From NCBI GenBank assembly GCA_964645605.1, contig CAZYCE010000003.1, positions 57,135 through 121,134 of the forward strand: a stretch of DNA of 64,000 nt, in the 5' to 3' direction. Position numbers and translations under genes: made by a program. Source of the stretch: an uncultured Gammaproteobacteria bacterium (GTDB taxonomy: Bacteria > Patescibacteriota > Microgenomatia > UBA8517). The notes beneath the pieces were generated by a model. The model was not told the DNA's origin. It made no database searches and saw only the letters and a program-made list of their open reading frames with translations. Shown in pieces: positions 8,946 to 52,354 of this stretch (the first letter of the stretch is position 1; the number at the start of each line of letters is the position of its first letter).

Positions 8946-9773
8946 TTATTTTATCTTAAGGCGTTTTGGTAAGTAGTTTTGCTTTGAAACAATTTTTCTA
9001 CCGGTTTCTTTTTCTAACTTCTTCCTCGCATCACCCGCAATATTTCCACCACGTCTCGAAACCAATTTATTTTTCTCAAATCCAATCGGATGTTCGACCT
9101 TTGTAATTTCGGTGGTAGATGCCTCTCCAAGGGCGGAAAACAAAAGTTCTAAATCGTTCATGTGATCTCTTAGATTTTGTCTTTTTATTCCTTTATATTT
9201 TTTATACTCCGTCGGTGTTATACCAAATGTTGCCTTGGAAATTTCAGCAGTTAAAATTTGATATTCCTTGGGCAGTTCCACGCCGTGTTTTTGCCATTGG
9301 TCTGTTAATGTTTCACGAATCTCAATACCGCGCATGCGCATCTCAATCCATCTGTCCGGATAGCCTTTAGCTTTATAAATTGCACGCGCACGCTTTTGTG
9401 CAAGTTCCGGATCTTCAATTTCCTGGATTCTCTCATAACCTACTTTTGCCAACCAGCGCTTAAACGGTTCGGCTTTTGGAGATGGAATTGACTCAATTAA
9501 GCGGAAAAGTGTCTCTGTGTTTACACAGTCAGTTAAATACATTTTTCCATCCTTTGATTTTAATTTCAGTTGTCCGATTTTATCGGACAACTCAACATAA
9601 CCCTCAGTTTTGATTTTTTTCTTGAGGTCGCTCCAATACTTGCGGGGTCTATCCGAACCAGTCAACGTTTCTATAACATCAATAACCGAGAACCACCACT
9701 CATTTTTATGAATTAATTTTCTAATTTCTTTTTGCCTAAAAATAGCAATTTTTGTCTCTGAAGAACTATTCAT
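8946..9773 (-). CDS. DinD-like (DNA-damage-inducible protein D) Bro-N domain protein
   Basis: N-terminal Bro-N-like WFSVIDVIETLTGSDRPRKYW. The C-terminal block QWQKHGVELPKEYQILTAEISKATFGITPTEYKKYKGIKRQNLRDHMNDLELLFSALGE closely parallels E. coli DinD. Confidence 0.65.
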   Translation of the reverse strand: MNSSSETKIAIFRQKEIRKLIHKNEWWFSVIDVIETLTGSDRPRKYWSDLKKKIKTEGYVELSDKIGQLKLKSKDGKMYLTDCVNTETLFRLIESIPSPKAEPFKRWLAKVGYERIQEIEDPELAQKRARAIYKAKGYPDRWIEMRMRGIEIRETLTDQWQKHGVELPKEYQILTAEISKATFGITPTEYKKYKGIKRQNLRDHMNDLELLFSALGEASTTEITKVEHPIGFEKNKLVSRRGGNIAGDARKKLEKETGRKIVSKQNYLPKRLKIK

Positions 9774-17830: not shown

Positions 17831-17904
17831 AGAGGGACATATTTACAATATAATATCTATGATATTGATTTTTCCTATAGTATAATGTACAATCACGCCA
17901 ATTT

Positions 17905-19014
17905 ATGAATACTGAAAGATTGACTGGTTTGAGGATAAACCCAATCTTGAAAGACTTGGGTGAGGCCTCTTTTCTCTCAGAAAAATATGGTATTCCCCGA
18001 CAGGACATAATATTGACATCCCTCAACCTGTCTGGAGTTTCTTCTGATATTTCAGAATCTCGTGTACGTTTTCATTTTACACCGGAAGGGACGAAAAAAG
18101 ATTTCTACCTTGCTCTTTGTGTTAATACCACCCCCGGTACATTCGAACTCAAGAACCAAGCAATTTTTCTGTCGGGAGAAAAAATAGGCGATACTTCTTC
18201 CATAGAGAATGATACATGTAATGACAATTATTTTAGAAGGAATGGCACTGAATTGACCCTGAATACAAACTCAAGAAGTTTGTGTAAAGGATGCGCAATC
18301 TGTGGAACTTATTCTCTGGAAGCTGATGATAAAGAACGGCTTCTTAGAAAAACATTGCTTTCACAGAGAGTCAAGGAAATCATGAATCAGCAGCAACAGA
18401 ATGATTGCTCAAGCCTTTGCCGTGTAACTCTTTGTACTGGATGCTTTGGGAATGAAAAGGCTACTGTGGATCATATTTTGGATTTGAACGATGTATTAAA
18501 AGATCTTAACTTTCATGGAACCCTACGCTACATAGGCTCCGAAATTACAACAGAAGAAGCTCTTGACGAAATCGCCGGCAAAGTTGATCGTTTTGCTCTA
18601 TCCTTCTCCGTTGAAACCTTTACCAGAAGGGCGGAACTGCTACGCAATATAAAATCAAGATTTTCATTTGAAGACATTAAAAGTGCTCTTGAAAGATCTG
18701 CTGAAAGGGGAATTGAAACCAATATTCTATACGTTTTGGGTCTTGATCCGCTACGCGCTTTTGAGGAAGGCTTTAAAGAACTCCAGCCACTGATGAATCA
18801 TTTCCCTGTTGTTAATTTGTTTCAGATATATAGTCCTGAGCAAGCATTACTTAGAACAAGCGAGGCGAATGGAATTGAATATTATTTAACTGCCAGGAAG
18901 ATCCTAGAGGAGATGTACGCTGGTTCAGACTTAAGACCGGAATCATGGGAAAACTACCGTCCGTTGTGGTATTTATCTTTTGGAAGGGATGGCAAAAATG
19001 ACATCAGAATTTGA
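17905..19014 (+). CDS. Cys-rich protein with CX2CX2C and CX3CX4CX2C clusters, possible Fe-S / radical-SAM-like enzyme
   Basis: SLCKGCAICGTY and DCSSLCRVTLCTGC clusters. Downstream segments (RFALSFSVETF, ILYVLGLD) resemble radical-SAM barrel strands. This is not canonical CX3CX2C. Confidence 0.3.
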   Translation: MNTERLTGLRINPILKDLGEASFLSEKYGIPRQDIILTSLNLSGVSSDISESRVRFHFTPEGTKKDFYLALCVNTTPGTFELKNQAIFLSGEKIGDTSSIENDTCNDNYFRRNGTELTLNTNSRSLCKGCAICGTYSLEADDKERLLRKTLLSQRVKEIMNQQQQNDCSSLCRVTLCTGCFGNEKATVDHILDLNDVLKDLNFHGTLRYIGSEITTEEALDEIAGKVDRFALSFSVETFTRRAELLRNIKSRFSFEDIKSALERSAERGIETNILYVLGLDPLRAFEEGFKELQPLMNHFPVVNLFQIYSPEQALLRTSEANGIEYYLTARKILEEMYAGSDLRPESWENYRPLWYLSFGRDGKNDIRI

Positions 19015-19528
19015 CAGGCCGATAAAAGAGGAAAGTAGAAAAGAGGCAGAGAGAAAATATGTAGAATTACTTATAAATCAGGGGGTCGATTTTGCGACAG
19101 GAGTACCCTGTGGAGTGCAGAAATATGTGATTGAATCACTTTCCTCAAGGCAAGAGGTTGCTCATATTCCGGCAACTCGAGAGTCCGAAGCTATAGGAAT
19201 AGCAGCTGGTGCATACCTTGCAGGCAAGAAACCACTTGTTTATATGCAAAATTCAGGGTTGCTTGAGTGTGTAAATGATATCTCATCATTATTATTGAGC
19301 TATAAAATTCCTGTATTATTATCTGTTTCATGGCGTGGTGCTCCGGGTGAAGATGCACCTCAACATTTTCTTAACGGTACCGCAACACCATTAATTTTGA
19401 AGGATTTGGGAATTTCCCACTTTATTATTAAGAATGATGAACAGGACTCGATTGTTAAAAAAGCCTATGAAGAAATGAAATCTACTCAAAAACCTGTGGC
19501 AATTTTGATTAGAAGGGAGGAATTCTAA
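18980..19528 (+). CDS. sulfopyruvate/phosphonopyruvate decarboxylase alpha-subunit-like protein (TPP enzyme N-terminal domain, ComD/Ppd family)
   Basis: GIAAGAYLAGKKPLVYMQNSGL is near-identical to the ComD/Ppd signature. The likely start is the ATG at 18998, which overlaps the upstream stop. Confidence 0.65.
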   Translation: MEGMAKMTSEFDRPIKEESRKEAERKYVELLINQGVDFATGVPCGVQKYVIESLSSRQEVAHIPATRESEAIGIAAGAYLAGKKPLVYMQNSGLLECVNDISSLLLSYKIPVLLSVSWRGAPGEDAPQHFLNGTATPLILKDLGISHFIIKNDEQDSIVKKAYEEMKSTQKPVAILIRREEF

Positions 19529-19529
19529 T

Positions 19530-20579
19530 ATGGACCGAAAAGAAGCAATTGATACAATTTTCCAAAATCTAGACAAAAATGACGCAGTTATTTCTTCTAC
19601 GGGACTTATAAGTCGGGAGATATTTAAAAGTTATGATAGCGAGAGAAATTTTTACATGGTCGGTTCGATGGGATTGGCTTCTTCAATAGCGCTGGGCGTC
19701 GCATTAAATAGACAAGATAGAGAGGTTTTTGTTATCGAAGGAGATGCGTCGGTATTAATGAACCTTGGTAGTTTAGCTACAATCGGGCATTTTCAGCCAA
19801 AAAATTTAGCACACATTGTTCTGGATAATAAAGCCTATGCATCCTGCAGCGAAGAGCCGTCAGTTTCAACAACGACTGATTTAAGTGAAATCGCTAAAGT
19901 TACAGGCTACAAGAGGATTGCAAGAGTAGATAACTCTACAGATTTGGTTAAAATGTTGTCTGGTGCCGATAAAAGTACTGGGCCTACATTCATATTGGTT
20001 GAGATTGAATTGGGGGGTGAAAGGAATTTACCTAGACCGATGGATTTACCAAAAAATGCAGACAATTTTCGAACATTTTTGTCACAAGTGCCGGAAAGTA
20101 ATTTTGGACACTCAAATATTGAGGTAGAGGGGACTGAACTCATTGAAAAATTTAAAAATACCTTAAAAGACATTTCGGTTTCAAATATAGAAGATTTTTC
20201 CGGTATTGGTATCATTTTATACAATTCGAACGTTCTGCTGGAAAATACTCACACAGACACTCGTTTAAGCACACCTCCACTGAACCATTTCAGGTTAGGA
20301 GAACAAGATTGCTTAAACTTTCTCGCGGATATCTCGCAGCATCGTAATCCATTTCATGACGGTTTCGTTTTCTTTAATGAAAAAGGGGTGTTAACGCATA
20401 TAGCTCAATACTTTGTCCCGTCAGTTGTTCCGGGAATTATCCCCAATGAAAGTGCGGGAATCAGGTTTCATTCGGCAAAATACGGTTCGTTTGTTAACGG
20501 AGTGATAGCAACAGGTGTCGTCAGTCGCAAACAGTCAGCCTATTTTTTCATAAAAGGTGAACAAAATCTTATTAAGTAG
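19530..20579 (+). CDS. decarboxylase beta-subunit-like (TPP-binding, ComE/Ppd family) fused to a C-terminal DAC (diadenylate cyclase)-like domain
   Basis: The N-terminal half carries ISSTGLISRE...NFYMVGSMGLASSIALGVAL...GDASVLMNLGSLATIG...LDNKAY (TPP-binding GDG-like fold). The C-terminal residues ~215-349 carry FHDGFVFF...KGVLTHIAQYFVPS...AGIRFHSAKYGSFVNGVIATGVVSRK. This parallels CdaA LHDGAMIV...RIAAAACYLPLS...LGTRHRAAVGISEVTDSLTIIVSEE. Confidence 0.6.
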   Translation: MDRKEAIDTIFQNLDKNDAVISSTGLISREIFKSYDSERNFYMVGSMGLASSIALGVALNRQDREVFVIEGDASVLMNLGSLATIGHFQPKNLAHIVLDNKAYASCSEEPSVSTTTDLSEIAKVTGYKRIARVDNSTDLVKMLSGADKSTGPTFILVEIELGGERNLPRPMDLPKNADNFRTFLSQVPESNFGHSNIEVEGTELIEKFKNTLKDISVSNIEDFSGIGIILYNSNVLLENTHTDTRLSTPPLNHFRLGEQDCLNFLADISQHRNPFHDGFVFFNEKGVLTHIAQYFVPSVVPGIIPNESAGIRFHSAKYGSFVNGVIATGVVSRKQSAYFFIKGEQNLIK

Positions 20580-20581
20580 AC

Positions 20582-21235
20582 ATGGCTAATATTGAACGGG
20601 AGATGCAAAGGGAATGGGATAATATATATACAGGGCGGGATCCCGCCGTTTATAAAAACCATAAAACATATCAAGACGGCCTGGTGGAAGTTATAAAATT
20701 GTGGAAGACTCGGGGTGTGGAAACGGTTCTGGATTTGGGTTGTGGAATCGGTAGAAATTCATTACAGATAAAGAAAAACGGCCTTAACGTTTTTGGCATT
20801 GATATTTCACTGTATGCCCTCACCTTACTTAACTCAGATCTTCACACGCAGAACTCAGTTGAAGGAAGTTTTAGCAATCTCCCATTTGCCAATGGATCTT
20901 TTGATGCAGTTTTGGCCACGAGGGTACTTCAACACGGTTCCTTAGAAAATGTTCAAACAGGCATTAAGGAAATAGCACGGGTATTAAAACCAAATGGAAC
21001 TGCTTTTGTCACCGTTTGCGGCAGATTCTCGCATGGAGAAGTGCGACCTAATTTAATTAAAACTGCTACAAAAATTAAAGACCATCTTTATGTCCCAAAT
21101 TATGGACAAGAAAAAGGTGTCACTCACTATATTTTCAATAAAAAAAATATTAAAGAAACGTTCCGTAATTTCTCAATACCAAAAATCTGGAAAGATAGTG
21201 ACGATTATTATTGTTTTTTAGCTTATAAAAAATGA
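20582..21235 (+). CDS. class I SAM-dependent methyltransferase (1 of 3 tandem)
   Basis: VLDLGCGIGRNS motif I and the acidic-loop FDAVLATRVLQH post-I motif. Confidence 0.75.
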   Translation: MANIEREMQREWDNIYTGRDPAVYKNHKTYQDGLVEVIKLWKTRGVETVLDLGCGIGRNSLQIKKNGLNVFGIDISLYALTLLNSDLHTQNSVEGSFSNLPFANGSFDAVLATRVLQHGSLENVQTGIKEIARVLKPNGTAFVTVCGRFSHGEVRPNLIKTATKIKDHLYVPNYGQEKGVTHYIFNKKNIKETFRNFSIPKIWKDSDDYYCFLAYKK

Positions 21236-21981
21236 CTATTAATATCGAAGGAGAAACAAGCGAGCGTTACACGGAAATAGCCGGTAGCTACGCTTCTGAT
21301 TCGAGGAGTGTGTTAAATCAAGATCAAAGAAAAGAGCTGGACATATTCGGATCGCTGCTTCCCCGTCATCCGTCAAAAATAATAGATATCGGTTGTGGAA
21401 CGGGTAAGGCCGGAAAGTATTTGGCTTCGCTTGGAAACGAACTTTACGGATTAGATTTGTCAAGTGGAATGCTCAACGAAGCAAAAAGTGCCTTTAATCT
21501 TGGCGGTTTGGAGTTCAAACCAATCCGAGCAAATATGAGAAGTTTACCCTTCCGGGATGATTCCTTCGACGGTATTAGTTCCGTTGCTTCTTTAATTCAT
21601 GTATCACCGGAAAATCGGGATTTTGTATTTCAGGAGTTTTCAAGAATATTAAAGCCGGAAGGTGTAATTTATTTGTCTGTTCAAAATATGCTCTCGCCCA
21701 AGCATGTTAAACGGGTAATACAATCTTCCTTTTGCAATCTCGGTTTTGATGAAAAAGGACAATATTATTTAAAGCCAAAAAAGATAGACGAGTTACTGCT
21801 CACCAATATTTTCACAAGGCTCAGGCAGGGATATGCTTATCTTGATCAAAGGCATTGGTATTATCCGACAAAAAAAGAACTTTATCAAAAACTCAAAATT
21901 AATAATCTGGCACCTGTCTGGAGTTGTGGCTCTTTATCTGATAGATTAAGTATTATTGCTATAAAAGAAAAAGATAAATAG
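21232..21981 (+). CDS. class I SAM-dependent methyltransferase (2 of 3)
   Basis: IIDIGCGTGKAGKYL motif I. Overlaps the upstream gene by 4 nt (ATGA). Confidence 0.75.
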   Translation: MTINIEGETSERYTEIAGSYASDSRSVLNQDQRKELDIFGSLLPRHPSKIIDIGCGTGKAGKYLASLGNELYGLDLSSGMLNEAKSAFNLGGLEFKPIRANMRSLPFRDDSFDGISSVASLIHVSPENRDFVFQEFSRILKPEGVIYLSVQNMLSPKHVKRVIQSSFCNLGFDEKGQYYLKPKKIDELLLTNIFTRLRQGYAYLDQRHWYYPTKKELYQKLKINNLAPVWSCGSLSDRLSIIAIKEKDK

Positions 21982-21985
21982 AGTT

Positions 21986-22648
21986 ATGGATACCCAGTGG
22001 AATAAAATCTACAAACAGAAAAAATTATCTTATGTAAGCAGCCTCTCAACATGGAGTGATATGGTATTTTTTTTACAAAAAAGATCCGCTCGTACCGTTT
22101 TAGATGTGGGTTGCGGCAGCGGCCAACATCTGCTGGATCTGGCAAAAAAAGGCTTTAATGTTTCGGGAATTGATAATTCAGGTGAAGCAATAGCTCTTGC
22201 ACAAAACCTTTTCAAAAAAAATAAACTAAAAGCAAATTTGCTGGTCGCAGACATGCACAAGAAGATTCCGTTTAAAGATAATAGTTTTGATGCGGTCTAC
22301 AGTTTACGGACACTCAACCATGGGGATAGTAAGGATATCGAAAATACTTTTTCTGAGATAAAAAGAGTTTTAAAAAAGAATGGCATATTCTTTTTTACCG
22401 TTCAGAAAATTTTAGGCTTCAGAGACAATCTTGGAAAACATAGGCTGAACAATTTAATCATCAATTTTGTAAAACCACGTACATATATCAAACTCGAAAG
22501 TGACGAAAAAGGCGTCAAACACTTTTTGTTTAATAAAAATATTTTAATAAGACTTTTAAAGGGATACAAAATATTGAAATTTTGGGTTGATTACGGAAAA
22601 CAAGATTGGGAAAAGTATTATTGCGTTCTTGCGGAAAAGATCAATTAA
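21986..22648 (+). CDS. class I SAM-dependent methyltransferase (3 of 3, paralogue of the first)
   Basis: VLDVGCGSGQHLLDL motif I. The C-terminal KGVKHFLFNKN...YYCVLAEK parallels MT1's KGVTHYIFNKK...YYCFLAYK. Confidence 0.75.
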   Translation: MDTQWNKIYKQKKLSYVSSLSTWSDMVFFLQKRSARTVLDVGCGSGQHLLDLAKKGFNVSGIDNSGEAIALAQNLFKKNKLKANLLVADMHKKIPFKDNSFDAVYSLRTLNHGDSKDIENTFSEIKRVLKKNGIFFFTVQKILGFRDNLGKHRLNNLIINFVKPRTYIKLESDEKGVKHFLFNKNILIRLLKGYKILKFWVDYGKQDWEKYYCVLAEKIN

Positions 22649-23271
22649 CTTTGCCTTATACCGTCAAGCCACAGATTAAGCTTTTTGTAAAAAACAGGTT
22701 CCATACCGGTTGAATCCATTTTGCTTTTGACGGACTCAACGAACAAAAATCTTTCAAGTCCGGAGTTGTGGACAATTTCCTTATCTATGGGTCTAACGGC
22801 CGGAATGTTTCCGTCTATACCGTTTTCAAAATGACTTATTGGGAAACTTGCTTTTTCAAGTCCCCTATCCCACGTAGCATCAATTGGAATTTCTATACCG
22901 TTTGACTCGACTTCTAAGGAAAGGTGTAATTGCACGGGCATTAAATCTGCTAATTTTTTTAGATGTATAGGATAATCAACGGCCAAATCCTGCCAGAGAA
23001 ACGGTGTAGTAACATACTTTACCTTAAATTGTTTCTTGGAAAGAACTTCTCCCAGAAAATAATGTTTTGCCGAACAGGCACCCCTTCTGCGCCTGGCAAA
23101 GTCGTCTATGAGTTCATCGTAGGAAAAATGGCGTTCATACTTAATGTGTTCAAATGGGTAGTCCCGTATAAGGACGCACAATCTTGTTAGAGATTCGTCA
23201 TTTTCACCCGTCTCTCTGGACTGCAAATGTCCGGCTGGCTCATTTTCTTTTGGCATATTCGTGAACGGCAT
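22645..23271 (-). CDS. hypothetical protein, possible Cys-His-Asp transglutaminase/NAT-fold enzyme
   Basis: RRRRGACSAKHYFLGEVL resembles the catalytic-Cys segment of arylamine N-acetyltransferase and transglutaminase-like proteins. This is a weak call. Confidence 0.25.
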   Translation of the reverse strand: MPFTNMPKENEPAGHLQSRETGENDESLTRLCVLIRDYPFEHIKYERHFSYDELIDDFARRRRGACSAKHYFLGEVLSKKQFKVKYVTTPFLWQDLAVDYPIHLKKLADLMPVQLHLSLEVESNGIEIPIDATWDRGLEKASFPISHFENGIDGNIPAVRPIDKEIVHNSGLERFLFVESVKSKMDSTGMEPVFYKKLNLWLDGIRQS

Positions 23272-23351: not shown

Positions 23352-23975
23352 ATGGTTATCTATTTCGTGCGGCATGGAGAATCGGAAGGAAATAAAAATG
23401 GTCTTCACCAAGGGCCTGATGTACCGCTTTCTCAAGAGGGGATTCGACAAGCTCAGGTTCTTGCCGAAAGGCTCACAAAACACTCGATTGACATAATCTA
23501 CGCGAGCCCAATGGTTAGGACGAAACAAACTTCTGAAATAATTTCCGATAGACTGAAGATCCCTGTTGAACTTTGGGAGAATCTTAGAGAAATAAGGAAC
23601 CCGAGTGAGATCTGGGGTAAATCTGCCGAAGATAAAAAGATTTTAGAAATCAAGGAATCAGCAAAAAAGGAATTCCTCAAGGGGAATAGCCGTTATTCTG
23701 ATGAGGAGACATTTGAAGAATTAGATAAAAGGGCTAAAGGAATTCTTGAACATTTGCTTTTACGTCATAAGGACCAAAATGTCTTGTGCGTGTCTCATGC
23801 GACTATGATAAAAATGGTTGTCCTTAAAGCTTTACTTGAAGAGGGGCTGACTCCCGAAATCTTTCTGCAATTAAGAGAACACATGTGGATCAAGAATACC
23901 GGAATTACAGTTCTGGAAAATACAGATAAGTGGGGTTGGACTCTTGTAAACTGGAATGACACAGCACACCTATAA
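23352..23975 (+). CDS. histidine phosphatase family protein (phosphoglycerate-mutase-like)
   Basis: YFVRHGESEGN RHG motif and CVSHATMIK. Confidence 0.75.
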   Translation: MVIYFVRHGESEGNKNGLHQGPDVPLSQEGIRQAQVLAERLTKHSIDIIYASPMVRTKQTSEIISDRLKIPVELWENLREIRNPSEIWGKSAEDKKILEIKESAKKEFLKGNSRYSDEETFEELDKRAKGILEHLLLRHKDQNVLCVSHATMIKMVVLKALLEEGLTPEIFLQLREHMWIKNTGITVLENTDKWGWTLVNWNDTAHL

Positions 23976-24624: not shown

Positions 24625-25908
24625 TTATTCATAGAACCAATCCCATCCGGGGTTGTCTACTTCAACAATTTTACTTTTTAACATTTTATAAACCCCGTCT
24701 TCCAAAACAGTTTTCCATGTTCCTTCGTAATAATGATCCTCAACCTCACCGTCTACCCAGTTTTTGGTGGAGAATTTTACAAATGCGGTATCTTTTGTAT
24801 TTTCGAACCTCTCCGATTTAATAATATCGACGTCAAGAATATCGGTAAACCTGCCGGTCCACTCTTCAAAATTGGTTTTCTGTAAGTATTCCGTACTAAG
24901 AAGATTGAATCCGTCTTCCATTCTTCTTGCCTTAAGATATGTATAGAAAGCATAAACAGCATCCTCGGGGGATTTTGAAGGATCAACCTGAATTTTTGCT
25001 ATATCGTTATCGGTGAAGTTGGGAATCAAAGTTGAAATATTCTGAGCCCCTATAAATAGGGACAGACCTGCAACTCCCATTGTGTTTACCCCGACAAGGC
25101 TTCCGCATTGGTCAACAAGGGGTCCGCCGCTCATTCCGGGAACAAGACTCATATTTGTTTGGACATACCCGATCGGGTCTTTCCTGGAGGTTCTGTAATC
25201 TATGAAGTTTCCTTTAACTACGGTAGCGTTGCCTACCATATCGGTACCCAGCGCATACCCTGCAGAGATAAGCGGCTCATTGTCGTAAAATCCAAGCTCC
25301 TCGGGTAGGGAATATACGAAATCGGGATATTTGCCGTCGATAAATAGCAGTGCAAGGTCCGTATTTTTATCCCCGATAATTTTCGTAGGAGTCACAATCG
25401 TTCCTTCAGCCAAAATAATTTTTGGACTTGGTTCACCGGCAATCACATGGAAATTTGTTAATACCTGATTTTCACTTATAAAGAATCCCGACCCTTCCAT
25501 ATAACTTCCTTCAATTCTGACAACGGATTTTTTAAGTTTATCCGTTGTCGCGGGACCGCAGAAAATTTTTGCGAATGATCCGTATTGTTTTCTTAAATAA
25601 TCGGCAATTACCACTAGCGAAAAGAAGAGATAGATGATGATAACTACGTACACAATAGATTTCAAAAAGTTTTTGAGGCTTTTGAAAGGATATTTAATGC
25701 AGTCGATGATAAGCCCGATAATGGCAAGGATTAGTTTTATCAAAAACTTGATTAGGTAGTAAAGGGTATAGGTTATAAACTTGATGGGGAAGAGGTAAAT
25801 GGGAAAAAGAAGTTTTTTAAAATAAGCCTTAAGCCTTGAAGTAATATTTTTAAATTTAGACTTAATTTTCCCGGCCAGTCTTTCAAAAATGTCCATGTTA
25901 TTTTTCAA
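24625..25908 (-). CDS. membrane-anchored trypsin-like (S1) serine protease with unassigned C-terminal domain
   Basis: TM helices in the first ~100 aa. Catalytic triad context TNFHVIAG, DLALL and GMSGGPLV. Confidence 0.7.
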   Translation of the reverse strand: MKNNMDIFERLAGKIKSKFKNITSRLKAYFKKLLFPIYLFPIKFITYTLYYLIKFLIKLILAIIGLIIDCIKYPFKSLKNFLKSIVYVVIIIYLFFSLVVIADYLRKQYGSFAKIFCGPATTDKLKKSVVRIEGSYMEGSGFFISENQVLTNFHVIAGEPSPKIILAEGTIVTPTKIIGDKNTDLALLFIDGKYPDFVYSLPEELGFYDNEPLISAGYALGTDMVGNATVVKGNFIDYRTSRKDPIGYVQTNMSLVPGMSGGPLVDQCGSLVGVNTMGVAGLSLFIGAQNISTLIPNFTDNDIAKIQVDPSKSPEDAVYAFYTYLKARRMEDGFNLLSTEYLQKTNFEEWTGRFTDILDVDIIKSERFENTKDTAFVKFSTKNWVDGEVEDHYYEGTWKTVLEDGVYKMLKSKIVEVDNPGWDWFYE

Positions 25909-26653
25909 ATTTTCTTATCGCTTTTCTGTAATTGCAAAAATCGCAATCTTCCCCGGACTCCGGTAGTTTATCCGACTTAAGGCACTCAATAGCTTCTTGA
26001 ACTGTTCCATCCACCCAAGAATCATCCCCTTTATAGGGAATAATTTTAATATCAAACTCAAGTTTTCCGTCAAAAGCCTTTTTGTCTGTTTTTCCGTTGC
26101 AGTAAACAAAGTAGCCTGTTTTTGAAACATCATAACCGTTTTTTCTAAACAGCCATTGGTATATCTCCATTTGCCTTTTATATCCTTTCTGCCAATCGGC
26201 ATCCAAGTTTACTTCATCCTCTTTGGAAGTGGCTTTGTAGTCCACGATAATAAACTCACCCTTGGGATTAACCCAAACATCATCAACCCCTCCGGCTATT
26301 ACGACATTTGTTCCCGGAACATTATATGTAACCCCTCTCTTCATGGAATCCCTCCATTCGTCAATTTTTTCATGAGCGAGGGGAATTGCATCAATTCCGT
26401 ATGTTTCCATTAATGGGTGTTTTGTCCCGTTGGCTCTATGAATGTCAAATTCCTTCTTGAGAAGCTTATCTACGGCGGAGTTAAGCGAAAAAGGATATCC
26501 GGGCGGTTGGGCAACACCAAGTTTCCTATCGAGGTAAAAACAGCGGGGACATTTGATAAAATCATCAACCTTCCCTCGGCTCAATCTAAATGGTGCTTTT
26601 GAATCAGAATCATAAAGCCTCGTTAAACGGTTTGGGTTGTAATATTCACTCAT
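25898..26653 (-). CDS. Cas4-like / RecB-family PD-(D/E)XK nuclease with 4-Cys Fe-S cluster
   Basis: N-terminal CPRCFY and C-terminal CDFC cysteines. GGVDDVWV (motif II), IVDYKAT (D/ExK) and QMEIYQWL (QxxxY). No CRISPR array lies nearby. Confidence 0.6.
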   Translation of the reverse strand: MSEYYNPNRLTRLYDSDSKAPFRLSRGKVDDFIKCPRCFYLDRKLGVAQPPGYPFSLNSAVDKLLKKEFDIHRANGTKHPLMETYGIDAIPLAHEKIDEWRDSMKRGVTYNVPGTNVVIAGGVDDVWVNPKGEFIIVDYKATSKEDEVNLDADWQKGYKRQMEIYQWLFRKNGYDVSKTGYFVYCNGKTDKKAFDGKLEFDIKIIPYKGDDSWVDGTVQEAIECLKSDKLPESGEDCDFCNYRKAIRKFEK

Positions 26654-27632: not shown

Positions 27633-28028
27633 TTAGCCAATTTCCTCTTTAATTTTGTTTATACAAAATTGTAAGTTGTCATATATATCGGTTTCCCAAA
27701 AACGAAAGACTTTCCACCCATCTTTTTTTAATTCGTTATTCACTTTTTTATCCCTTTCCATGTTAATTCTGATTTTTTCTTTCCAGAATTTATTGTAATT
27801 GGGTGCTTCCTTGCTATAGTTTCTTCCATGCCAAAAATCACCGTCGCAGAAAATAACAATTTTACTGTCTATTATGACCATATCCGGTTTTCCCGGAAGC
27901 GGAAAATTTTTTTCAAATCCAATTCCCGAAGTATTCAAAGCGGCACCCAGCATTAATTCAATATCCGTATCCTTATTTCTCACCTTTGCCATTAACTCCT
28001 TTCTTTTTTTAATGGAAATTCTATCCAT
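27633..28028 (-). CDS. vsr: very-short-patch repair endonuclease
   Basis: LPGKPDMVIIDSKIVIFCDGDFWHG...WKEKIRINMERD...GWKVFRFWE, the full Vsr signature. Confidence 0.85.
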   Translation of the reverse strand: MDRISIKKRKELMAKVRNKDTDIELMLGAALNTSGIGFEKNFPLPGKPDMVIIDSKIVIFCDGDFWHGRNYSKEAPNYNKFWKEKIRINMERDKKVNNELKKDGWKVFRFWETDIYDNLQFCINKIKEEIG

Positions 28029-28029
28029 A

Positions 28030-29064
28030 TTACTGATTATTATTTATGGTCTTAATTATATTGGCCGCAATTGCTTCAATAACGGGAATTGCCACACTAT
28101 TACCGATCTGTTTCATCCTTTGGTTGGGCGACAGCTGATCAGGAAATTTGAAGTTACTCGGAAAGCCCATCATTGATTTTGCCTCGTCAACGGTGAGTTG
28201 ATGAGGTTTTCTTTTTTTGGAATTCTTTTCGAAGAATAAATAAGAATCCCATGTTCTTTTATCGTTTACCCAAATTTTATTGTCATCGACTCTGATATAA
28301 GAATCGTCTGGCGTTTTGTGTTTATCTAGCCAATTGTTACTTTTATATGCCGAGCCTACACCACCCAACCTAATTGTTCTTCCGACACGATTGGGCCAAC
28401 CCAATCGTGTTATGTCTGACGAGTCCCACTCTTCGTTCAAGTTTTTAAAGAATTCTGATAAGGTAACAGGTTCTTCATGCGTCGGCTTCGGCCACCACGA
28501 ATCATCAGGAGCCGCGCGTAAAACATCTTCCCTAAAACCGACCATGTACACTCTATCTCTTTTTGTGGGGAGTCCAAATTGTGAAGCCTTATAGGTGTGG
28601 ATAGAAATTGGATAACCCGCACTTTTCATTTCGCTTTTAATAAAATCGATTAGTTTGCCGTTGTTTCCATTGGGAATATTAAGTAAGTTTCTGACATTTT
28701 CCAAAAATACGGCTTTTGGTTTTTTTTCGCGAACAATCTGAACAATATATTGGAAAAGTGTTCCTCTGTGATCATCAACTCCTCTTTTTTTACCGACAAC
28801 ACTAAAAGGTTGGCATGGAAATCCCGCACAAACAATATCTATACCTGTGGGGATGCCTCTTCTTACAACGGGATCTTTTATATCACCAAGGAGCTTCGTT
28901 CCTTTAAAGTTTTTTGAATATGTCAAACTCGCTTTATCGTCGATATCTACTGCAAGTACGCATTCTGAGGGTATTCTAAGTTTTTCTGAGGACTGTTTTA
29001 TTCCCAAATGAAATCCACCAATTCCGGAAAAAAGATCAACGAATTGTAATTTGTTCTTTCTCAT
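28030..29064 (-). CDS. dcm: DNA (cytosine-5)-methyltransferase
   Basis: Motif I FVDLFSGIGGFHLG, motif IV GFPCQPFS, ENV motif VI (FLENVRNL) and C-terminal GNSV. Confidence 0.9.
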   Translation of the reverse strand: MRKNKLQFVDLFSGIGGFHLGIKQSSEKLRIPSECVLAVDIDDKASLTYSKNFKGTKLLGDIKDPVVRRGIPTGIDIVCAGFPCQPFSVVGKKRGVDDHRGTLFQYIVQIVREKKPKAVFLENVRNLLNIPNGNNGKLIDFIKSEMKSAGYPISIHTYKASQFGLPTKRDRVYMVGFREDVLRAAPDDSWWPKPTHEEPVTLSEFFKNLNEEWDSSDITRLGWPNRVGRTIRLGGVGSAYKSNNWLDKHKTPDDSYIRVDDNKIWVNDKRTWDSYLFFEKNSKKRKPHQLTVDEAKSMMGFPSNFKFPDQLSPNQRMKQIGNSVAIPVIEAIAANIIKTINNNQ

Positions 29065-29076: not shown

Positions 29077-29826
29077 TCAACTTAGCTTAGAGAGAAAATC
29101 ACGGCAACCATCAAGTAACTGTCGCATTTGGATGTCACTCATCGAAGAGAGTATTTTATATGATCCGTAATAGTTAAGTTTTTTCATTAATTCACGATAC
29201 TTAAGTTCCCTGCCTGGTTCAAATAATTTAGGGTTGTCCTTCTCAAAATCCAAAATTGAGCTAATCATTTTTTTGTTTTTTCCCTGATATCCTGAATAAA
29301 TTGTCCTTGTTTGATCCAAGTCACGAAAGGCTAATCGCGATAATTCATAAGGGTCACGTCTTTTATTGTCAAAGGTTAAATAAATAATCCACCAAAGTTT
29401 TGAGATCTCATTTCTCATCAAGTCGTTTGCAGAACTATTTTCTACAAACCAATGAGTTAAGACGTGGTTAACCAACTGTTCATTAGTTTTGTGGCTCGAA
29501 GGAACAGGGCTTCTTTTTTGCATATAGTTCCAAAATACCGTGTGTGAAAGACATGACCAAATCCTTGGATCTGTTGCATAATCTGGCTTTAATCCGTGAA
29601 TTTTTTCAAAAAGAATTTTGCCGTTCTCAAACTCGAATTGAGTTTTGTCTTTACCCTCTGGCTCAAGGAGTTTGATATCGTCATCAATGGTAACTGTGGG
29701 GTGTTCCCAAACGCATTCCTCTTTTATCGGAAATGAACTAGCCGAATAAAGGGGCAATGATTTGGAATTTTTCACTGCATCTTTGAGCTCCACCAAGTAG
29801 GCGTTTGTAAAAAGTTTAAGTTTCAT
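29077..29826 (-). CDS. hypothetical protein (candidate cognate nuclease/effector)
   Basis: ORF translationally coupled to dcm. No motif was recognised. Confidence 0.3.
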   Translation of the reverse strand: MKLKLFTNAYLVELKDAVKNSKSLPLYSASSFPIKEECVWEHPTVTIDDDIKLLEPEGKDKTQFEFENGKILFEKIHGLKPDYATDPRIWSCLSHTVFWNYMQKRSPVPSSHKTNEQLVNHVLTHWFVENSSANDLMRNEISKLWWIIYLTFDNKRRDPYELSRLAFRDLDQTRTIYSGYQGKNKKMISSILDFEKDNPKLFEPGRELKYRELMKKLNYYGSYKILSSMSDIQMRQLLDGCRDFLSKLS

Positions 29827-30739
29827 TATATTGTTCGTTTATGCTTTCCTTAGTTGTGAGGGGAATAAGGCCCTCAATACTTATTAATTGCCTTGAAAAA
29901 GGAAGCCTCATTATTAATTGTGAAATTCTTGGTATATCTACAACTTGAAAATCTAAAGAGTCTGTTTCTTCGTTGTAGTAAATAGATAATTTCTCATCTC
30001 TTTTAATCTTGTGTTTAAGCATTTTATACCACGTATATTTTGGTTGTTCTGAGGATTGGTTTATGTATGCCAATATATAATTCAAAACTGGAAATACTAA
30101 CGAACTATGATAAATTGCCGGAATAAATTGATTTCTTCCAAAATAATCGAATTTTTTATGATCTTCGTGGGTCATATAAATTATTATTTTCTGGTTATCA
30201 AAACCGATTTCGAGTGGTTCCGCCTTTCCACCATTTGGATTGTCTACTACAACAAAAAAATTTTTAACTAATTTTGTTGATTGGAAAATTTTCTCCGCCC
30301 AAAAAATTTTTTCATTTGTAAAAGCTAAAATATCACCCGCATCTAAATCAAAACCGTTATCCAAATACTCATCATTAAAATTAGGGCTTTTATATTGGGC
30401 AATAGATGCTGTCGCTACGATAAAAAACTGAATTGCTACCTCCTCCGAAACATCATCCGCAGAGATCATAATTTCTTGAGTTTCACTCTTACTGTTGTAT
30501 GTGCTTCTGTAAATTGTACTTTCACACTGTATATCGACACAAAAACAAGCCTTATCATCTTGTATTAATTTTTCAATTGTCCTCTCAGCAAGATGGTGTT
30601 TGATCTTAAAATTATAAAAATGACCCCCATCTTTTTCTGTTATACTCGTTGCAACCATCCCAACATCATATTCTCCAGCAATGTCGCCCTCCCTTCCTAA
30701 AACTGGATATGGATATGATTTATTAGTCAATATTTTCAT
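29816..30739 (-). CDS. hypothetical protein
   Basis: ORF overlapping both neighbours. No motif was recognised. Confidence 0.3.
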   Translation of the reverse strand: MKILTNKSYPYPVLGREGDIAGEYDVGMVATSITEKDGGHFYNFKIKHHLAERTIEKLIQDDKACFCVDIQCESTIYRSTYNSKSETQEIMISADDVSEEVAIQFFIVATASIAQYKSPNFNDEYLDNGFDLDAGDILAFTNEKIFWAEKIFQSTKLVKNFFVVVDNPNGGKAEPLEIGFDNQKIIIYMTHEDHKKFDYFGRNQFIPAIYHSSLVFPVLNYILAYINQSSEQPKYTWYKMLKHKIKRDEKLSIYYNEETDSLDFQVVDIPRISQLIMRLPFSRQLISIEGLIPLTTKESINEQYNET

Positions 30740-32735
30740 ATTTTGCCTTTAGTCCTAAAGAGTATTTTTCATTGCTTTCAAAATATACAATCAGTTTAAC
30801 TTTTCCTTCATTGTCCGTAACAATATTATGAATTATATTGCCGTTAGTTATTAATGACTTCCCGGATATTTCTTCTGCGCCTGAAATTATTGGTGAGTTA
30901 TAGTCTATGCCGCTTTCGGTACCCCAGCCCAATATTAAATCCAATTTTTTATATTCCTGAAGGTCTAAGTTAATGTTGTATTTCCATTCACCATTTTTAC
31001 TCTTCGTTGCGAATGATCTAAAATCAGCATTCTTTAAGACAACCTCTTCACCTGAATGATTTTCATTACCCCCGTAGCCGTGACCGTGACCGTGGCCGCC
31101 TTCACGAATTAATACACCATTTTTCCCTTTTACACCCATCGTTGACACTGGAATAGTAACTACTGTTCGCCTTTCGAGCTTTTCAATTTCATGAATGTCG
31201 CCGGTGGCTCTGAGTGCGGTTTCTTCATCTGTTGGTTCACCGAATCCTGAATTCTCCATTGATGTGTCAAAACCTGCAAACTCATCGGGATTTTCTATCC
31301 CCAGCATGTCTTCCATTTCGGGTATTTCGCTTTCTTTAACAGATATAGTTTTACCTATCTCTCCCATAAAATCACTAACAAAGTCACGGAGTTCAACTTC
31401 TGCCGCCTCCGCCATCCGTTTTACCTGATCACTTTCTCCTGGTTTAACATAACTTGCCTTCCATTCATTGTGGGGGGCGTTTTCCATTTTGCGTAAAATT
31501 ATATTTCCCTCTCTACTCTCACATACGAATACAGCTGCAAATTTTTGAGGAAAAGCAAATACTTTATTCATAACCACCATTCCGTTATTCCTAACAAATT
31601 GAATTTTATTCTGGAAATCATTATTAAAGGAATAATACATTTTTAAATCGCCAAGAATTGTTGTCTTTTTCATGTACGGTTTTTCTTTATGTTCTGTATA
31701 TGCCCAGAGGTACGGAAAAGGATTCGGTCTAGTTTTGGTATCTGGTTTGTAAGTATCAAAAATCCCAGTTAAGCTTTTACCTAAATTATCCTTATTAACA
31801 ATAATGTCTTCAATTTGAACTTCCAAAAGTCCATCTTGAATTGCTTTCCAAAAATTGTACAGAATTTTTGTTGTCATCAGTTTTTTCCAGAAACCGCTAT
31901 CATCGAAATCGACAACATAAATATCTGTTCCTTGTTTTTCATCTAACCTCCGGAACATATATGGAATCTGATTCTTGGTACGAACCGGTTCCTGATTTTT
32001 TAAACCAAATGATCCACTACCTTGTTTCTTTTTGTTGTTAAAAATATGTGTATTTAAATCTAATAGGCCCCCAAAAACATATTTGTCTGTGTCAAAAATG
32101 CTGGAGTAAAAAAGAGTTCTAAATCCAGATAAATTATAAAAAGAAGCTTTTCCAAGACCCCACGAGCCACCACTTGTTTCACCTTTATTTGTTGATCCCT
32201 CTGTTTTAGCGAAACAGTAGAAATTGCTCTCGAGATATTTGGGGTCATTGGGGTCGCCACTCAAGCCCTGCGTATTATAATCACTAATTTTCAAAATTTT
32301 AATAAATTCATTTTTGGTAATCTTGTCTATGGCATCACCGTAAAATTTCTTTACATTCGGGTCGCGATAATATTCTTGACAAGCCTGGAATATGGATTTT
32401 AGTTGATCTGGGTTGGGAATTTCTTTCGCTTTTATTTTTAATAACTCGAATTTGGCAATTGCAGGGCCTTCCACGTTTTCGTCTTTAGCATCGAGTATGT
32501 TTTGAATAGCTTCTCTGGCCAAAGATTGTCTGGGGTCTTCTAAGAAATTAGATCCAAGAGGCGCATTAAATCCGTCATCTCTTCCATGTCCCAGATCTTC
32601 GAATTCGTAATTTAAATCAGCCATTTTATAATTGGAATTTAACTTTCTTTGTATAAGTAAATTTGGATTTTGCGTTATTTTTTGCCCCATCGATTGCGGT
32701 AAATATCTTTTGAATTTCGGAATCAGTATAATCAT
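30723..32735 (-). CDS. GHKL (Bergerat-fold, HATPase_c) ATPase, MORC/paraMORC-like
   Basis: N-box SLAREAIQNILDA and G2 box GGSWGLGKASF. The likely true start is MADLNYE at about 32624, 1 nt after the stop of the upstream 79-aa ORF. A GHGHGHGYGG low-complexity tract lies in the C-terminal third. Confidence 0.55.
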   Translation of the reverse strand: MIILIPKFKRYLPQSMGQKITQNPNLLIQRKLNSNYKMADLNYEFEDLGHGRDDGFNAPLGSNFLEDPRQSLAREAIQNILDAKDENVEGPAIAKFELLKIKAKEIPNPDQLKSIFQACQEYYRDPNVKKFYGDAIDKITKNEFIKILKISDYNTQGLSGDPNDPKYLESNFYCFAKTEGSTNKGETSGGSWGLGKASFYNLSGFRTLFYSSIFDTDKYVFGGLLDLNTHIFNNKKKQGSGSFGLKNQEPVRTKNQIPYMFRRLDEKQGTDIYVVDFDDSGFWKKLMTTKILYNFWKAIQDGLLEVQIEDIIVNKDNLGKSLTGIFDTYKPDTKTRPNPFPYLWAYTEHKEKPYMKKTTILGDLKMYYSFNNDFQNKIQFVRNNGMVVMNKVFAFPQKFAAVFVCESREGNIILRKMENAPHNEWKASYVKPGESDQVKRMAEAAEVELRDFVSDFMGEIGKTISVKESEIPEMEDMLGIENPDEFAGFDTSMENSGFGEPTDEETALRATGDIHEIEKLERRTVVTIPVSTMGVKGKNGVLIREGGHGHGHGYGGNENHSGEEVVLKNADFRSFATKSKNGEWKYNINLDLQEYKKLDLILGWGTESGIDYNSPIISGAEEISGKSLITNGNIIHNIVTDNEGKVKLIVYFESNEKYSLGLKAKYENID

Positions 32736-44544: not shown

Positions 44545-44700
44545 GATAGTGGTTTTTCGAGGGTAAACAACCGTTATAATCCTCGCTTTTGAAAATAGCA
44601 CTATTGGAGGAAAATAAGGGCTTTTCGAGAGGACGGGGTCACTGAGGCTGTAAATGCTTGCTGCTCGTGAGTGATTCTCACTACGGCTTCAACATTCAGG
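44545..44700. repeat. intergenic repeat family copy (B), ~90% identical to the core of copy A
   Basis: gtttttcgagggtaaacaaccgttataatcctcgcttttgaaaatagcactattggaggaaaataagggcttttcgagaggacggggtcactgaggctgtaaatgcttgctg. Confidence 0.6.
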
Positions 44701-52352: not shown

Positions 52353-52354
52353 AG

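Follow-up and report, generated by a model that had tools for sequence, protein, structure and literature searches.

PanS-type diadenylate cyclases (DACs) have so far been described only from anti-phage guard systems (Panoptoo / PanDA), where they carry no regulatory domains, nearly always have an S2TM-beta effector as their partner, and lose their activity upon mutation of the DGF or G-x-R motif (bioRxiv 10.64898/2026.08.10.743927; PMC13640721); radical SAM or TPP partners are mentioned in neither of the two available Panoptoo/PanDA preprint texts. A radical-SAM core related to the one considered here is found within larger, clearly biosynthetic clusters on plasmids of Clostridium perfringens, Nocardia, and Streptomyces, which carry adenylating enzymes, a carrier protein, a BtrH-like transferase, exporters, and tailoring enzymes. 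Such contexts include the pCPF5603-type plasmid pCP721-84_1, a plasmid of S. avidinii, locus L008, and Nocardia farcinica pNF1, in which a GGDEF protein, two further radical SAM genes, a nucleoside hydrolase, and pyrF lie near the radical-SAM homologue. Our literature search found no product description for the pCPF5603 and pNF1 clusters.

Here we describe a related locus in a 64 kb window (the whole stretch of DNA analysed), in which the evidence supports the identification of a six-ORF operon as a putative small-molecule pathway. On balance, we lean towards reading these six co-directional genes and a seventh, convergent one as a specialised-metabolite operon, the low-GC host's version of a rare, horizontally scattered biosynthetic cassette family. 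The original prediction had placed six forward-strand ORFs within positions 17905-22648; all are present, with the domain types expected (a weak Radical_SAM match in gene 1, TPP_enzyme_N and TPP_enzyme_C in genes 2 and 3, and class I SAM methyltransferases in genes 4-6), and the junctions of -17, +1, +2, -4, and +4 nt are reproduced when the ATG at 18998 is taken as the start of gene 2. Such tight junctions suggest that the six genes are co-translated. The unit reaches past 22648 to a convergent ORF whose family is common to four related cassettes. The features are as follows.

17859..17886, + strand: candidate promoter from a consensus scan (ATGATA / 16-nt spacer / TATAAT), 19 nt upstream of the gene 1 ATG
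17905..19014, + strand: gene 1, putative non-canonical radical-SAM-fold enzyme, 369 aa (N-terminal domain of ~118 aa, then a partial TIM barrel)
18283..18303, + strand: codons C127-K-G-C130-A-I-C133 of gene 1, presumed [4Fe-4S] site, invariant in 20/20 homologues
18998..19528, + strand: gene 2, TPP decarboxylase alpha subunit (ComD / Ppd N-terminal-half type; TPP_enzyme_N), 176 aa
19530..20084, + strand: gene 3 residues 1-185, TPP decarboxylase beta subunit (ComE / Ppd C-terminal-half type; TPP_enzyme_C)
20124..20570, + strand: gene 3 residues ~199-347, PanS-type minimal DAC domain of ~150 aa, from profile and BLASTP homology to PanS
20582..21235, + strand: gene 4, class I SAM methyltransferase MT1 (Methyltransf_11/25), 217 aa
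21232..21981, + strand: gene 5, class I SAM methyltransferase MT2 (Methyltransf_11/25), 249 aa
21986..22648, + strand: gene 6, class I SAM methyltransferase MT3 (Methyltransf_11/25), 220 aa
22645..23271, - strand: gene 7, convergent, 208 aa, overlapping the gene 6 stop by 4 nt; homologues in the L012, L013, L015, and L023 cassettes

The promoter-like site is weak evidence because the regional count of such sites is not above shuffled expectation, and an Rfam search of the gene 1 leader gave no riboswitch. A P-type cation ATPase is encoded directly upstream of the operon.

The 369-aa product of gene 1, originally described as a Cys-rich protein of radical-SAM-like character that might yet prove to be a known non-enzymatic family, has a true radical-SAM fold, which is an enzyme fold. 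Its Radical_SAM Pfam score is 27 bits, below the gathering score of 29.5, and no NCBIfam model matches it; its nearest solved folds are HydG, LipA, MqnE, NosL, ThiH, PylB, and BioB, with an identity of 11-17% to any solved radical SAM enzyme. As in members of that superfamily, the Cys loop of its partial TIM-barrel core follows strand 1, and strand 2 carries G-x-x-x-x-E where the GGE motif is normally located. Unlike them, the window protein has CX2CX2C in place of CX3CX2C, a novel N-terminal domain, which bears no resemblance to known nucleotide sensors, and additional conserved residues at Cys105 (19/20 homologues) and Cys180. Judged from the alignments, CX2CX2C is the canonical motif contracted by one residue: the distant relatives P0198, P0205, and P0209 retain CX3CX2C, apparently at the same position, although BLASTP against P0198 aligns the second and third Cys of the window protein and leaves the first just beyond the aligned block. 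Of the two Cys patterns predicted, CX2CX2C is invariant, while CX3CX4CX2C is present in the sequence but is not conserved as a motif, its residues being found in 20/20 (C180), 12/20 (C177), 3/20 (C168), and 1/20 (C172) homologues.

Genes 2 and 3 have their best matches in the sulfopyruvate and phosphonopyruvate decarboxylase models. Gene 2 scores 136.3 bits against TIGR03845 (cutoff 147.95) and 134.8 bits against TIGR03297 (profile positions 1-155), and gene 3 scores 186.9 bits against TIGR03297 (positions 171-360) and 159.3 bits against TIGR03846 (cutoff 221.5); the closest solved chain to the beta subunit is 9iz3_B, a putative phosphonopyruvate decarboxylase beta subunit (E 2e-23). Both halves of the predicted split ComD/ComE-type decarboxylase are confirmed, but the 349-aa 'ComE' is a fusion, exceeding beta-subunit length by about 165 aa and carrying at residues ~199-347 a second domain that the original prediction had missed. 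Pfam DAC is the best sub-threshold match to this domain in 10/10 homologues, and the family profile searched against the PDB has 37jy_A ('Panoptoo PanS synthase') as its best match, covered along the full length at E 4.7e-28, with CdaA and DisA next in rank. In BLASTP the window domain is 33% identical to PanS (E 2e-17), and the catalytic DGF and G-x-R motifs are intact in it and conserved in homologues, making it a candidate cyclic-dinucleotide synthase. The same domain also occurs free-standing in related cassettes, and is fused to the TPP beta subunit in the window and L012 and to a methyltransferase in L002 and L013; fusion to either partner suggests a role in the pathway.

MT1 and MT3 are 33% identical over their full length, and MT2 is 28-29% identical to both. 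The PDB matches of MT2 and MT3 are generic small-molecule methyltransferases, and the three proteins resemble enzymes of this kind and not the specific rRNA/tRNA methyltransferases that had been named as a competing identity. An MT1 ortholog in Saccharibacteria (L002) is fused to a DAC domain. Exhaustive N-methylation to a trimethylammonium group, as first proposed for three methyltransferases in a row, fits poorly with relatives L007, L015, and L002, which carry one or two such genes. Gene 7 has no Pfam, PADLOC, or PDB sequence match; its family has invariant Cys66, His116, and Asp131, whose spacing may represent a transglutaminase/papain-like triad.

The radical-SAM family is rare, comprising 372 of 1.84e9 (1.84 billion) cluster representatives. 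It forms 53 clusters at 90% identity and is encoded at 52 loci among 185,579 species-representative genomes, with occurrences in Saccharibacteria, DPANN archaea, Methanosarcinales, Clostridia, Bacteroidota, Gammaproteobacteria, and Actinomycetota. The radical-SAM gene almost always adjoins a TPP enzyme, either a split ComDE/Ppd-like 2-oxoacid decarboxylase (14 of 55 loci) or a divergent phosphoketolase-like protein (27 of 55); since the latter replaces it so often, the decarboxylase is not an obligatory partner. SAM methyltransferases are usual and phosphatases (HAD, at 23 loci, and PHP) frequent. About half of the loci encode a candidate cyclic-dinucleotide synthase, be it a PanS-like minimal DAC (12 loci), a GGDEF-like protein (13, in actinobacteria), or F9 (6), a weakly DAC-like protein of ~150 aa. 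A cyclase is absent from the gammaproteobacterial and some clostridial cassettes, and its role is therefore not universal. Micrarchaeota have the radical-SAM and DAC genes only, as an overlapping pair, and GrpB is fused to the radical-SAM protein in P0083, P0089, and P0107. With respect to defence, a candidate system (PDC-M33) and a Dcm/Vsr pair lie 4-10 kb from the window operon and L007 abuts a CBASS operon; no CBASS match was found among the scanned window genes, no PADLOC model matches the core proteins of the cassette, and the flanks of 27 loci hold only a handful of defence genes; by our own judgement, rather than against a computed background, this is not a clear enrichment.

An ordinary phosphonate (Ppd) or coenzyme M (ComDE) pathway, with PEP mutase and an aminotransferase, or ComABC / cysteate synthase, encoded elsewhere and the methyltransferases N-methylating aminoethylphosphonate or taurine, would account for both subunits matching the Ppd and ComDE models best, for the nearest solved chain being a putative Ppd beta subunit, and for a TIGR03297 score that, summed over the two halves, reaches 321.7 bits against a whole-protein cutoff of 312.5. 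Each subunit nonetheless falls under its own ComD or ComE cutoff, and the decarboxylases of other cassettes mostly fail both models. As the original prediction held, no PEP mutase, ComA/B/C, or aminotransferase was found among the ORFs covered in the 64 kb window (most ORFs of at least 150 aa, by Pfam scans or precomputed Pfam annotation of 13.9-40.3 kb, with a few ORFs, mostly <200 aa, outside the scans), nor among ten neighbours tested beside related cassettes. Neither pathway explains the phosphoketolase-like replacement in 27 of 55 loci, and the conserved partner, a radical-SAM enzyme, has no role in known pathways of either kind; we rank this explanation as the least probable. Extending the trimethylammonium idea, the product could be a betaine-like N-methylated compatible solute, the fused DAC coupling its synthesis to c-di-AMP osmolyte signalling. 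Cyclic di-AMP regulates potassium and compatible-solute homeostasis, the upstream gene encodes a cation ATPase, and phosphoethanolamine and glycine/sarcosine N-methyltransferases are among the generic matches of the three methyltransferases, which stand in a row. These matches, however, are limited to the Rossmann core and unspecific, relatives have anywhere from one to three methyltransferases, the cassette contains no amine-forming enzyme, regulatory domains are absent from PanS-type DACs, and the actinobacterial and clostridial settings resemble secondary metabolism, so that a solute pathway appears very improbable.

The cassette could instead act as a Panoptoo/PanDA-like guard, in which the DAC would constitutively make a decoy cyclic dinucleotide restraining an effector, here the radical-SAM enzyme and accessory enzymes in place of the membrane protein PanE, until phage sponges or nucleases remove the signal and release a toxic or antiviral activity. 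Consistent with this are the homology to PanS with catalytic motifs kept, the two-gene Micrarchaeota modules, the interchange of DAC and GGDEF-type synthases across loci (cf. Panoptoo and Panoptes), the sporadic and plasmid-borne distribution of the family, and the defence genes near the window operon and L007. However, PanS is otherwise reported almost always with S2TM-beta, the core proteins match no PADLOC model and the 27 flanks contain few defence genes, the N-terminal domain of the radical-SAM protein shows no similarity to known nucleotide sensors, and a cyclase is missing from many cassettes. An effector would also not be expected to come with TPP enzymes, phosphatases, a glycosyltransferase, NRPS-type genes, and exporters, and the DAC fusions suggest a pathway role. 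We therefore consider a guard function unlikely.

A specialised-metabolite pathway, of neither phosphonate nor coenzyme M type, remains our best reading. In the chemistry we infer, the TPP enzyme would act on a three-carbon or sugar precursor that is anionic and probably phosphorylated, giving a two-carbon aldehyde or a carbanion unit bound to TPP. The radical-SAM enzyme would be responsible for the key step, which depends on SAM and is probably radical, and the methyltransferases for tailoring the product; the DAC domain may supply c-di-AMP or cUA, to be used as a building block or to serve as a signal integral to the pathway. Several observations run counter to this reading: the closest characterised relative of the DAC serves anti-phage guard systems and not biosynthesis, gammaproteobacterial and some clostridial cassettes do without a cyclase, the Micrarchaeota pair looks more like a two-gene signalling system, and defence genes (PDC-M33, Dcm/Vsr, and the CBASS operon beside L007) are nearby.

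In comparison with ComDE and Ppd/Fom2/AepY, the window enzyme belongs to the same small decarboxylase family, is split into alpha and beta subunits, and has a readable GD-x26-DN TPP-binding motif in its beta subunit; it differs in that its subunits fall under subunit-level equivalog cutoffs, no partner from the pathway of either enzyme was found among the window ORFs covered, a cyclase domain is attached to the beta subunit, and the enzyme is swapped with a phosphoketolase-like protein across cassettes. With PanS (PDB 37jy) the DAC domain shares its minimal size of ~150 aa, DGF, G-x-R, and an extended AQYF-PP lid region, but their settings differ: the window domain is joined to the beta subunit of a TPP decarboxylase, its counterparts in relatives are joined to a methyltransferase or adjoin the radical-SAM gene, and the operon has no S2TM-beta (PanE) effector gene. 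The pCPF5603 and pNF1 clusters use a phosphoketolase-family protein and not a split decarboxylase, add NRPS-type, enolase-superfamily, extra radical SAM, and exporter genes, and have no cyclase (pCPF5603) or a GGDEF protein instead of a DAC (pNF1). Like the window operon, however, the 'putative metabolic genes' cluster of the C. perfringens cpe plasmid pCPF5603 and the N. farcinica pNF1 cluster encode homologues of the 369-aa protein (39.8% and 31% identity, respectively) that adjoin a TPP enzyme, a HAD hydrolase, and a class I methyltransferase.

The original prediction placed a six-gene operon on the plus strand, and its six ORFs were located there; the gene junctions of -17, +1, +2, -4 and +4 nt were reproduced when ATG 18998 was taken as the start of gene 2. 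The operon and the genes just beyond it are:

17905-22648 (+): operon of a 369-aa radical-SAM protein (gene 1), TPP decarboxylase alpha and beta subunits (genes 2 and 3) and methyltransferases MT1-MT3 (genes 4-6)
22645-23271 (-): gene 7, convergent with the operon, of a family with invariant Cys, His and Asp found in four CPR/DPANN/Methanosarcinales cassettes
23352-23975 (+): His_Phos_1 histidine-phosphatase gene, just past gene 7 and not conserved among relatives

A promoter-like site with TATAAT lies 19 nt 5' of the gene 1 ATG (such sites are not enriched regionally), an Rfam scan of the operon leader found no riboswitch or other element, and the GC content of the operon (0.38-0.39) is the same as that of the flanking DNA. 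The expected split decarboxylase was recovered in genes 2 and 3, which match TPP_enzyme_N and TPP_enzyme_C (Pfam) and have sulfopyruvate decarboxylase alpha/beta and phosphonopyruvate decarboxylase as top family models (NCBIfam), as were the three class I SAM methyltransferases in genes 4-6 (Pfam/NCBIfam). Full-length identity between MT1 and MT3 is 33%, MT2 shares 28-29% identity with each of them, and the PDB matches of all three are generic small-molecule methyltransferases. PDB sequence relatives were found neither for the gene 7 family nor for F9, a ~150-aa neighbour family of related cassettes. The histidine phosphatase could substitute for the HAD/PHP phosphatases of those cassettes.

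The gene 1 protein has a partial (beta/alpha)6 TIM barrel with the cluster loop after strand 1, as in the radical SAM fold. Its anticipated radical-SAM-like character is borne out by fold matches, while the match to Pfam PF04055 Radical_SAM is sub-threshold (27.0 bits, gathering score 29.5) and covers profile positions 52-152 only. Of the cysteine pattern described at the outset, CX2CX2C stands, being invariant in 20 of 20 homologues, while the second motif, CX3CX4CX2C, is not conserved; at the level of single residues, C127, C130, C133 and C180 are invariant and C105 is kept in 19 of the 20. The canonical CX3CX2C [4Fe-4S] motif is absent, with CX2CX2C as the presumed cluster site. Further non-canonical Cys spacings are known in the radical SAM superfamily. 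Three weaker metagenomic relatives (P0198, P0205 and P0209) carry the canonical CX3CX2C (e.g. CPGGCVYC, CPGACAFC), which apparently occupies the site of the CKGCAIC of the window protein; BLASTP pairs the second and third Cys of the window protein and a distant relative, the first falling just beyond the aligned block. Since these relatives keep CX3CX2C at an apparently equivalent position, the CX2CX2C of gene 1 looks like the normal loop shortened by one residue.

When 1.84 billion cluster representatives were scanned in full with HMMER, only 372 relatives came up at E <= 1e-3. The family to which gene 1 belongs is small and sharply bounded, combines the radical-SAM fold with a contracted Fe-S motif and includes no characterised member, and SAM binding and cleavage on the contracted loop is the chemical question that it poses. 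A PDB sequence search with the family profile gave a chance match only, and an exact look-up of the 369-aa protein gave no match because the public gene call begins 14 codons downstream of its start. Modelled alone, the N-terminal domain had no structural relative, and its candidacy as a cyclic-nucleotide sensor or RiPP recognition element was therefore set aside. In three metagenomic proteins of 522-531 aa (P0083, P0089 and P0107), GrpB, of nucleotidyltransferase fold, is fused N-terminally to the CX2CX2C radical-SAM protein; free-standing GrpB genes occur in several clostridial cassettes.

Among 185,579 species-representative genomes, radical-SAM relatives were found at 52 loci, in Saccharibacteria, four DPANN phyla, Methanosarcinales, Clostridia, Bacteroidota, Gamma- and Alphaproteobacteria and many Actinomycetota. 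IMG/VR contigs yielded no relatives, so a viral origin is not supported. Partner genes were counted by HMM searches over 55 loci, metagenomic loci having been added to the species-representative loci.

Partner genes of the radical-SAM relatives (loci with partner/loci searched)
Phosphoketolase-like protein: 27/55
HAD hydrolase: 23/55
F5, an unnamed ~150-aa protein: 20/55
Enolase-superfamily protein: 15/55
Split decarboxylase: 14/55
GGDEF-like protein: 13/55
PanS-like diadenylate cyclase (DAC): 12/55
F9, the weakly DAC-like ~150-aa family: 6/55

By lineage, the cassettes form four recognisable types. Where no TPP enzyme is encoded, the locus mostly lies on a short contig, is of an actinobacterial subtype that has an MMPL transporter, or comes from Micrarchaeota, in which the genes for the radical-SAM protein and the DAC overlap as a pair.

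Gene content of the cassette types
CPR/DPANN type (window included): radical-SAM, split decarboxylase, DAC, 1-3 methyltransferases, often the gene 7 family
Gammaproteobacteria type: decarboxylase, methyltransferase, radical-SAM; without cyclase
Clostridia type: phosphoketolase-like, HAD, glycosyltransferase, DAC, radical-SAM, GrpB; alternatively phosphoketolase-like, methyltransferase, radical-SAM only
Actinobacteria type: radical-SAM, enolase-like, HAD, GGDEF, F5, phosphoketolase-like

At one locus of an uncultured gammaproteobacterium (L007, 1-9095), a decarboxylase-methyltransferase-radical-SAM cassette lies directly downstream of a CBASS operon (SMODS, E1/E2, JAB, SAVED-Cap4).

Decarboxylases of this kind invite comparison with phosphonate and coenzyme M pathways. 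Gene 2 scores 136.3 bits against ComD TIGR03845 (equivalog cutoff 147.95) and gene 3 scores 159.3 bits against ComE TIGR03846 (cutoff 221.5), both below cutoff; on Ppd TIGR03297 the two halves sum to 321.7 bits (134.8 + 186.9) against a cutoff of 312.5 that is meant for an unsplit single chain. Cassette decarboxylases elsewhere score ~253-341 bits on TIGR03297 and mostly fail both the ComDE and Ppd models. PEP mutase, ComA/B/C and aminotransferase genes are, as first reported, absent from the window (Pfam over most ORFs of >= 150 aa; precomputed annotation of 13.9-40.3 kb), and the cysteate synthase or ComA/B/C context of coenzyme M synthesis was not found in the 64 kb. Among ten genes neighbouring related cassettes, too, no PEP mutase, ComA/B/C or aminotransferase turned up, two of the ten being additional HAD hydrolases. 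With the partners missing from the window and the subunits below the ComD/ComE cutoffs, we consider a phosphonate or coenzyme M pathway very unlikely; moreover, the decarboxylase is interchanged with a phosphoketolase-like enzyme, for which such a pathway cannot account. In Actinophytocola (locus L044), a genuine single-chain phosphonopyruvate decarboxylase (2138-3277; 435 bits, cutoff 312.5) lies ~5 kb from a phosphoketolase-type cassette and may mark a separate phosphonate cluster adjoining it.

At 349 aa, gene 3 is too long for ComE, the surplus being its last ~150 residues. This segment has homologues at E 1e-28 to 1e-35 in three protein contexts: small stand-alone proteins that other genomes encode beside the radical-SAM gene, the N-terminus of a Saccharibacteria methyltransferase, and the C-terminus of a TPP beta subunit (a Parvarchaeota genome). 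Pfam DAC (PF02457) is the top match in 10 of 10 homologues, at 14.4-23.2 bits and in every case below the gathering score of 27. Used alone in a word-indexed homology search, the domain brought up just one protein; it was identified instead by a PDB profile search, in which the family matched 37jy_A, "Panoptoo PanS synthase", with 100.9 bits (E 4.7e-28, profile positions 8-151 of 154), followed by the canonical DACs CdaA and DisA. The window domain itself is 33% identical to PanS (BLASTP, E 2e-17). F9 aligns to DAC with an hhalign probability of 18.6%. Across 14 sequences, H-D-G-F and G-x-R vary little or not at all; both are present in the window domain, which is predicted to be an active synthase because it keeps them. 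The preprint describing PanS reports that VcPanS mutants in the DGF or GGR motif lose activity, and that PanS, the minimal diadenylate cyclase of a two-gene guard system presented in August 2026, constitutively produces 3'3'-cUA or c-di-AMP, repressing the membrane effector PanE (bioRxiv 10.64898/2026.08.10.743927; PMC13640721).

Plasmids carry homologues of the gene 1 protein in 39 records (tblastn), of which 30 are ~75 kb C. perfringens cpe plasmids, pCPF5603 among them. On the pCPF5603-type plasmid pCP721-84_1 (L063, 1-14258), the homologue is 39.8% identical to the window protein and annotated as "hypothetical protein". In its single run of genes, ABC-2 transporters, a BtrH-N-domain protein, an adenylate-forming enzyme, an acyl carrier protein, a HAD hydrolase and an adenylation-domain protein are on one side of the homologue, and on the other are a phosphoketolase-family protein, a PHP-domain protein and a class I methyltransferase. 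The "putative metabolic genes" of this enterotoxin plasmid family, so far unexplained, make up an NRPS-like cluster. N. farcinica pNF1 has the homologue followed by an MR/MLE enzyme, a HAD hydrolase, a GGDEF-domain protein, F5, a phosphoketolase, a methyltransferase and two further radical SAM proteins, with a nucleoside hydrolase and a pyrF copy nearby, and a Streptomyces avidinii plasmid adds a creatininase-family protein, a PhyH dioxygenase, a Sua5/YrdC protein and an aminoglycoside-phosphotransferase-family gene. By ordinary criteria, these plasmid loci are biosynthetic gene clusters. The window operon is thereby tied to the long-unexplained pCPF5603 genes, and cultured Nocardia, Streptomyces, Arthrobacter and Sellimonas strains with related clusters open the question to experiment.

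Elsewhere in the window, the following features were observed:

37-3793 (-): tandem 613- and 643-aa proteins, each with a C-terminal GH130 mannoside-phosphorylase domain and a ~300-aa N-terminal extension without a match
24625-26653 (-): Trypsin_2 serine protease gene (427 aa) overlapping a PDDEXK_1 nuclease-family gene (251 aa)
27633-28028 (-): Vsr endonuclease, beside the PDC-M33 genes
28030-29064 (-): Dcm-type DNA methylase, likewise
29077-29826, 29816-30739 and 30723-32735 (-): C, B and A of PDC-M33, a PADLOC candidate defence system (E 4e-42 to 2e-91)
32931-33791 (-): EVE-domain protein
34781-36049 (+): Phosphodiest/PglZ-like protein, prolonging with the EVE gene a defence-island-like stretch; an Asp/Glu racemase lies beyond it
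38973-40157: AAA_14/DUF4143 ATPase, also beyond the PglZ-like gene
41121-43271 and 49492-54736: glycan-synthesis neighbourhood with undecaprenyl-diphosphate synthase, a methyltransferase-GT2 fusion (480 aa), four GT2, a nucleotidyltransferase and several no-match ORFs (407, 263 and 568 aa)
8946-9773 (-), 44671-45801 (+), 57065-57952 (+), 58690-58761 and 62896-62971: scattered mobile-element signs, namely a Bro-N protein, a Fic/DOC protein, and an rve integrase adjoining tRNA-Gln(CTG); tRNA-Glu(CTC) lies farther along

A Bro-N gene also lies directly upstream of the related cassette at locus L038.

We rank first, and consider on balance probable, that the operon serves small-molecule biosynthesis centred on the radical-SAM enzyme. 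Ranked second, and in our judgement decidedly unlikely, is a Panoptoo-like guard system, in which constitutive cyclic-dinucleotide synthesis would repress a toxic effector and the system would protect against phage. The relationship of the DAC domain to PanS speaks for defence, as do the two-gene radical-SAM and DAC modules of Micrarchaeota and an interchange of DAC and GGDEF that parallels Panoptoo versus Panoptes, yet many cassettes have no cyclase at all, and where the DAC is fused, it is fused to two different pathway enzymes. The patchy, plasmid-borne distribution would also suit a guard system, although the accessory genes are of the metabolite assembly and export type. Candidate system PDC-M33 with Dcm/Vsr lies 4-10 kb downstream of the operon, and CBASS adjoins the L007 cassette; among 141 flanking proteins from 27 loci, however, PADLOC flagged only a handful of defence genes (a few for restriction-modification, besides one CBASS and one candidate system), which in our judgement, made without a computed background, is no clear enrichment. 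PADLOC models (2023, older than Panoptoo) do not match the core proteins, and the N-terminal domain of gene 1 is unlike any known nucleotide sensor. It is on these points, for and against, that biosynthesis is placed above defence.

Folds, motifs, fusions and co-occurrence form the demonstrated part of the biosynthetic scheme. In its chemistry, the TPP enzyme would act on a precursor that is anionic and probably phosphorylated, namely a 3-substituted pyruvate in the case of the decarboxylase and a ketose phosphate in that of the phosphoketolase-like enzyme, and would yield a two-carbon aldehyde or a carbanion bound to TPP; a phosphorylated intermediate would agree with the recurrence of HAD, PHP and histidine phosphatases. 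The radical-SAM enzyme would carry out the committed SAM-dependent step, whose mode of SAM cleavage the contracted loop might change, the methyltransferases would tailor the product, and the cyclase would provide c-di-AMP or cUA as substrate or pathway-linked signal. More speculatively, and doubtful in our estimate, a cyclic dinucleotide or other nucleotide-linked small molecule would be made or tailored by the cassette, or the cassette would be a guard system with a wholly new enzymatic effector. In the nucleotide version, a PanS-type or GGDEF-type synthase would give the scaffold, which a radical-SAM enzyme of a new CX2CX2C subclass, the TPP-derived two-carbon unit and the methyltransferases would modify; if true, a cyclic dinucleotide would for the first time be the basis of a biosynthetic pathway, and the minimal DAC would gain its first non-immune, non-homeostatic role.

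Every component of the cassette is a member of a known superfamily; new are the CX2CX2C subfamily, the fusion of a PanS-type cyclase to a metabolic enzyme, and the alternative TPP partners. The searchable literature on radical SAM together with CX2CX2C, phosphoketolase/GGDEF, sulfopyruvate decarboxylase or PanS contains no description of the cassette, and the accessible text of the PanS preprint makes no mention of radical SAM, TPP enzymes or methyltransferases (bioRxiv 10.64898/2026.08.10.743927). PanS-type minimal cyclases, in 2026 described only beside membrane effectors in phage defence, are found here as fusion partners of metabolic enzymes too, in bacteria and archaea whose genomes are very small. 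Whereas Panoptoo/PanDA is a two-gene panS-panE system with an S2TM-beta effector, a partner found neither in the operon nor in related cassettes, the DAC here has a radical-SAM enzyme, TPP enzymes and methyltransferases as its neighbours.
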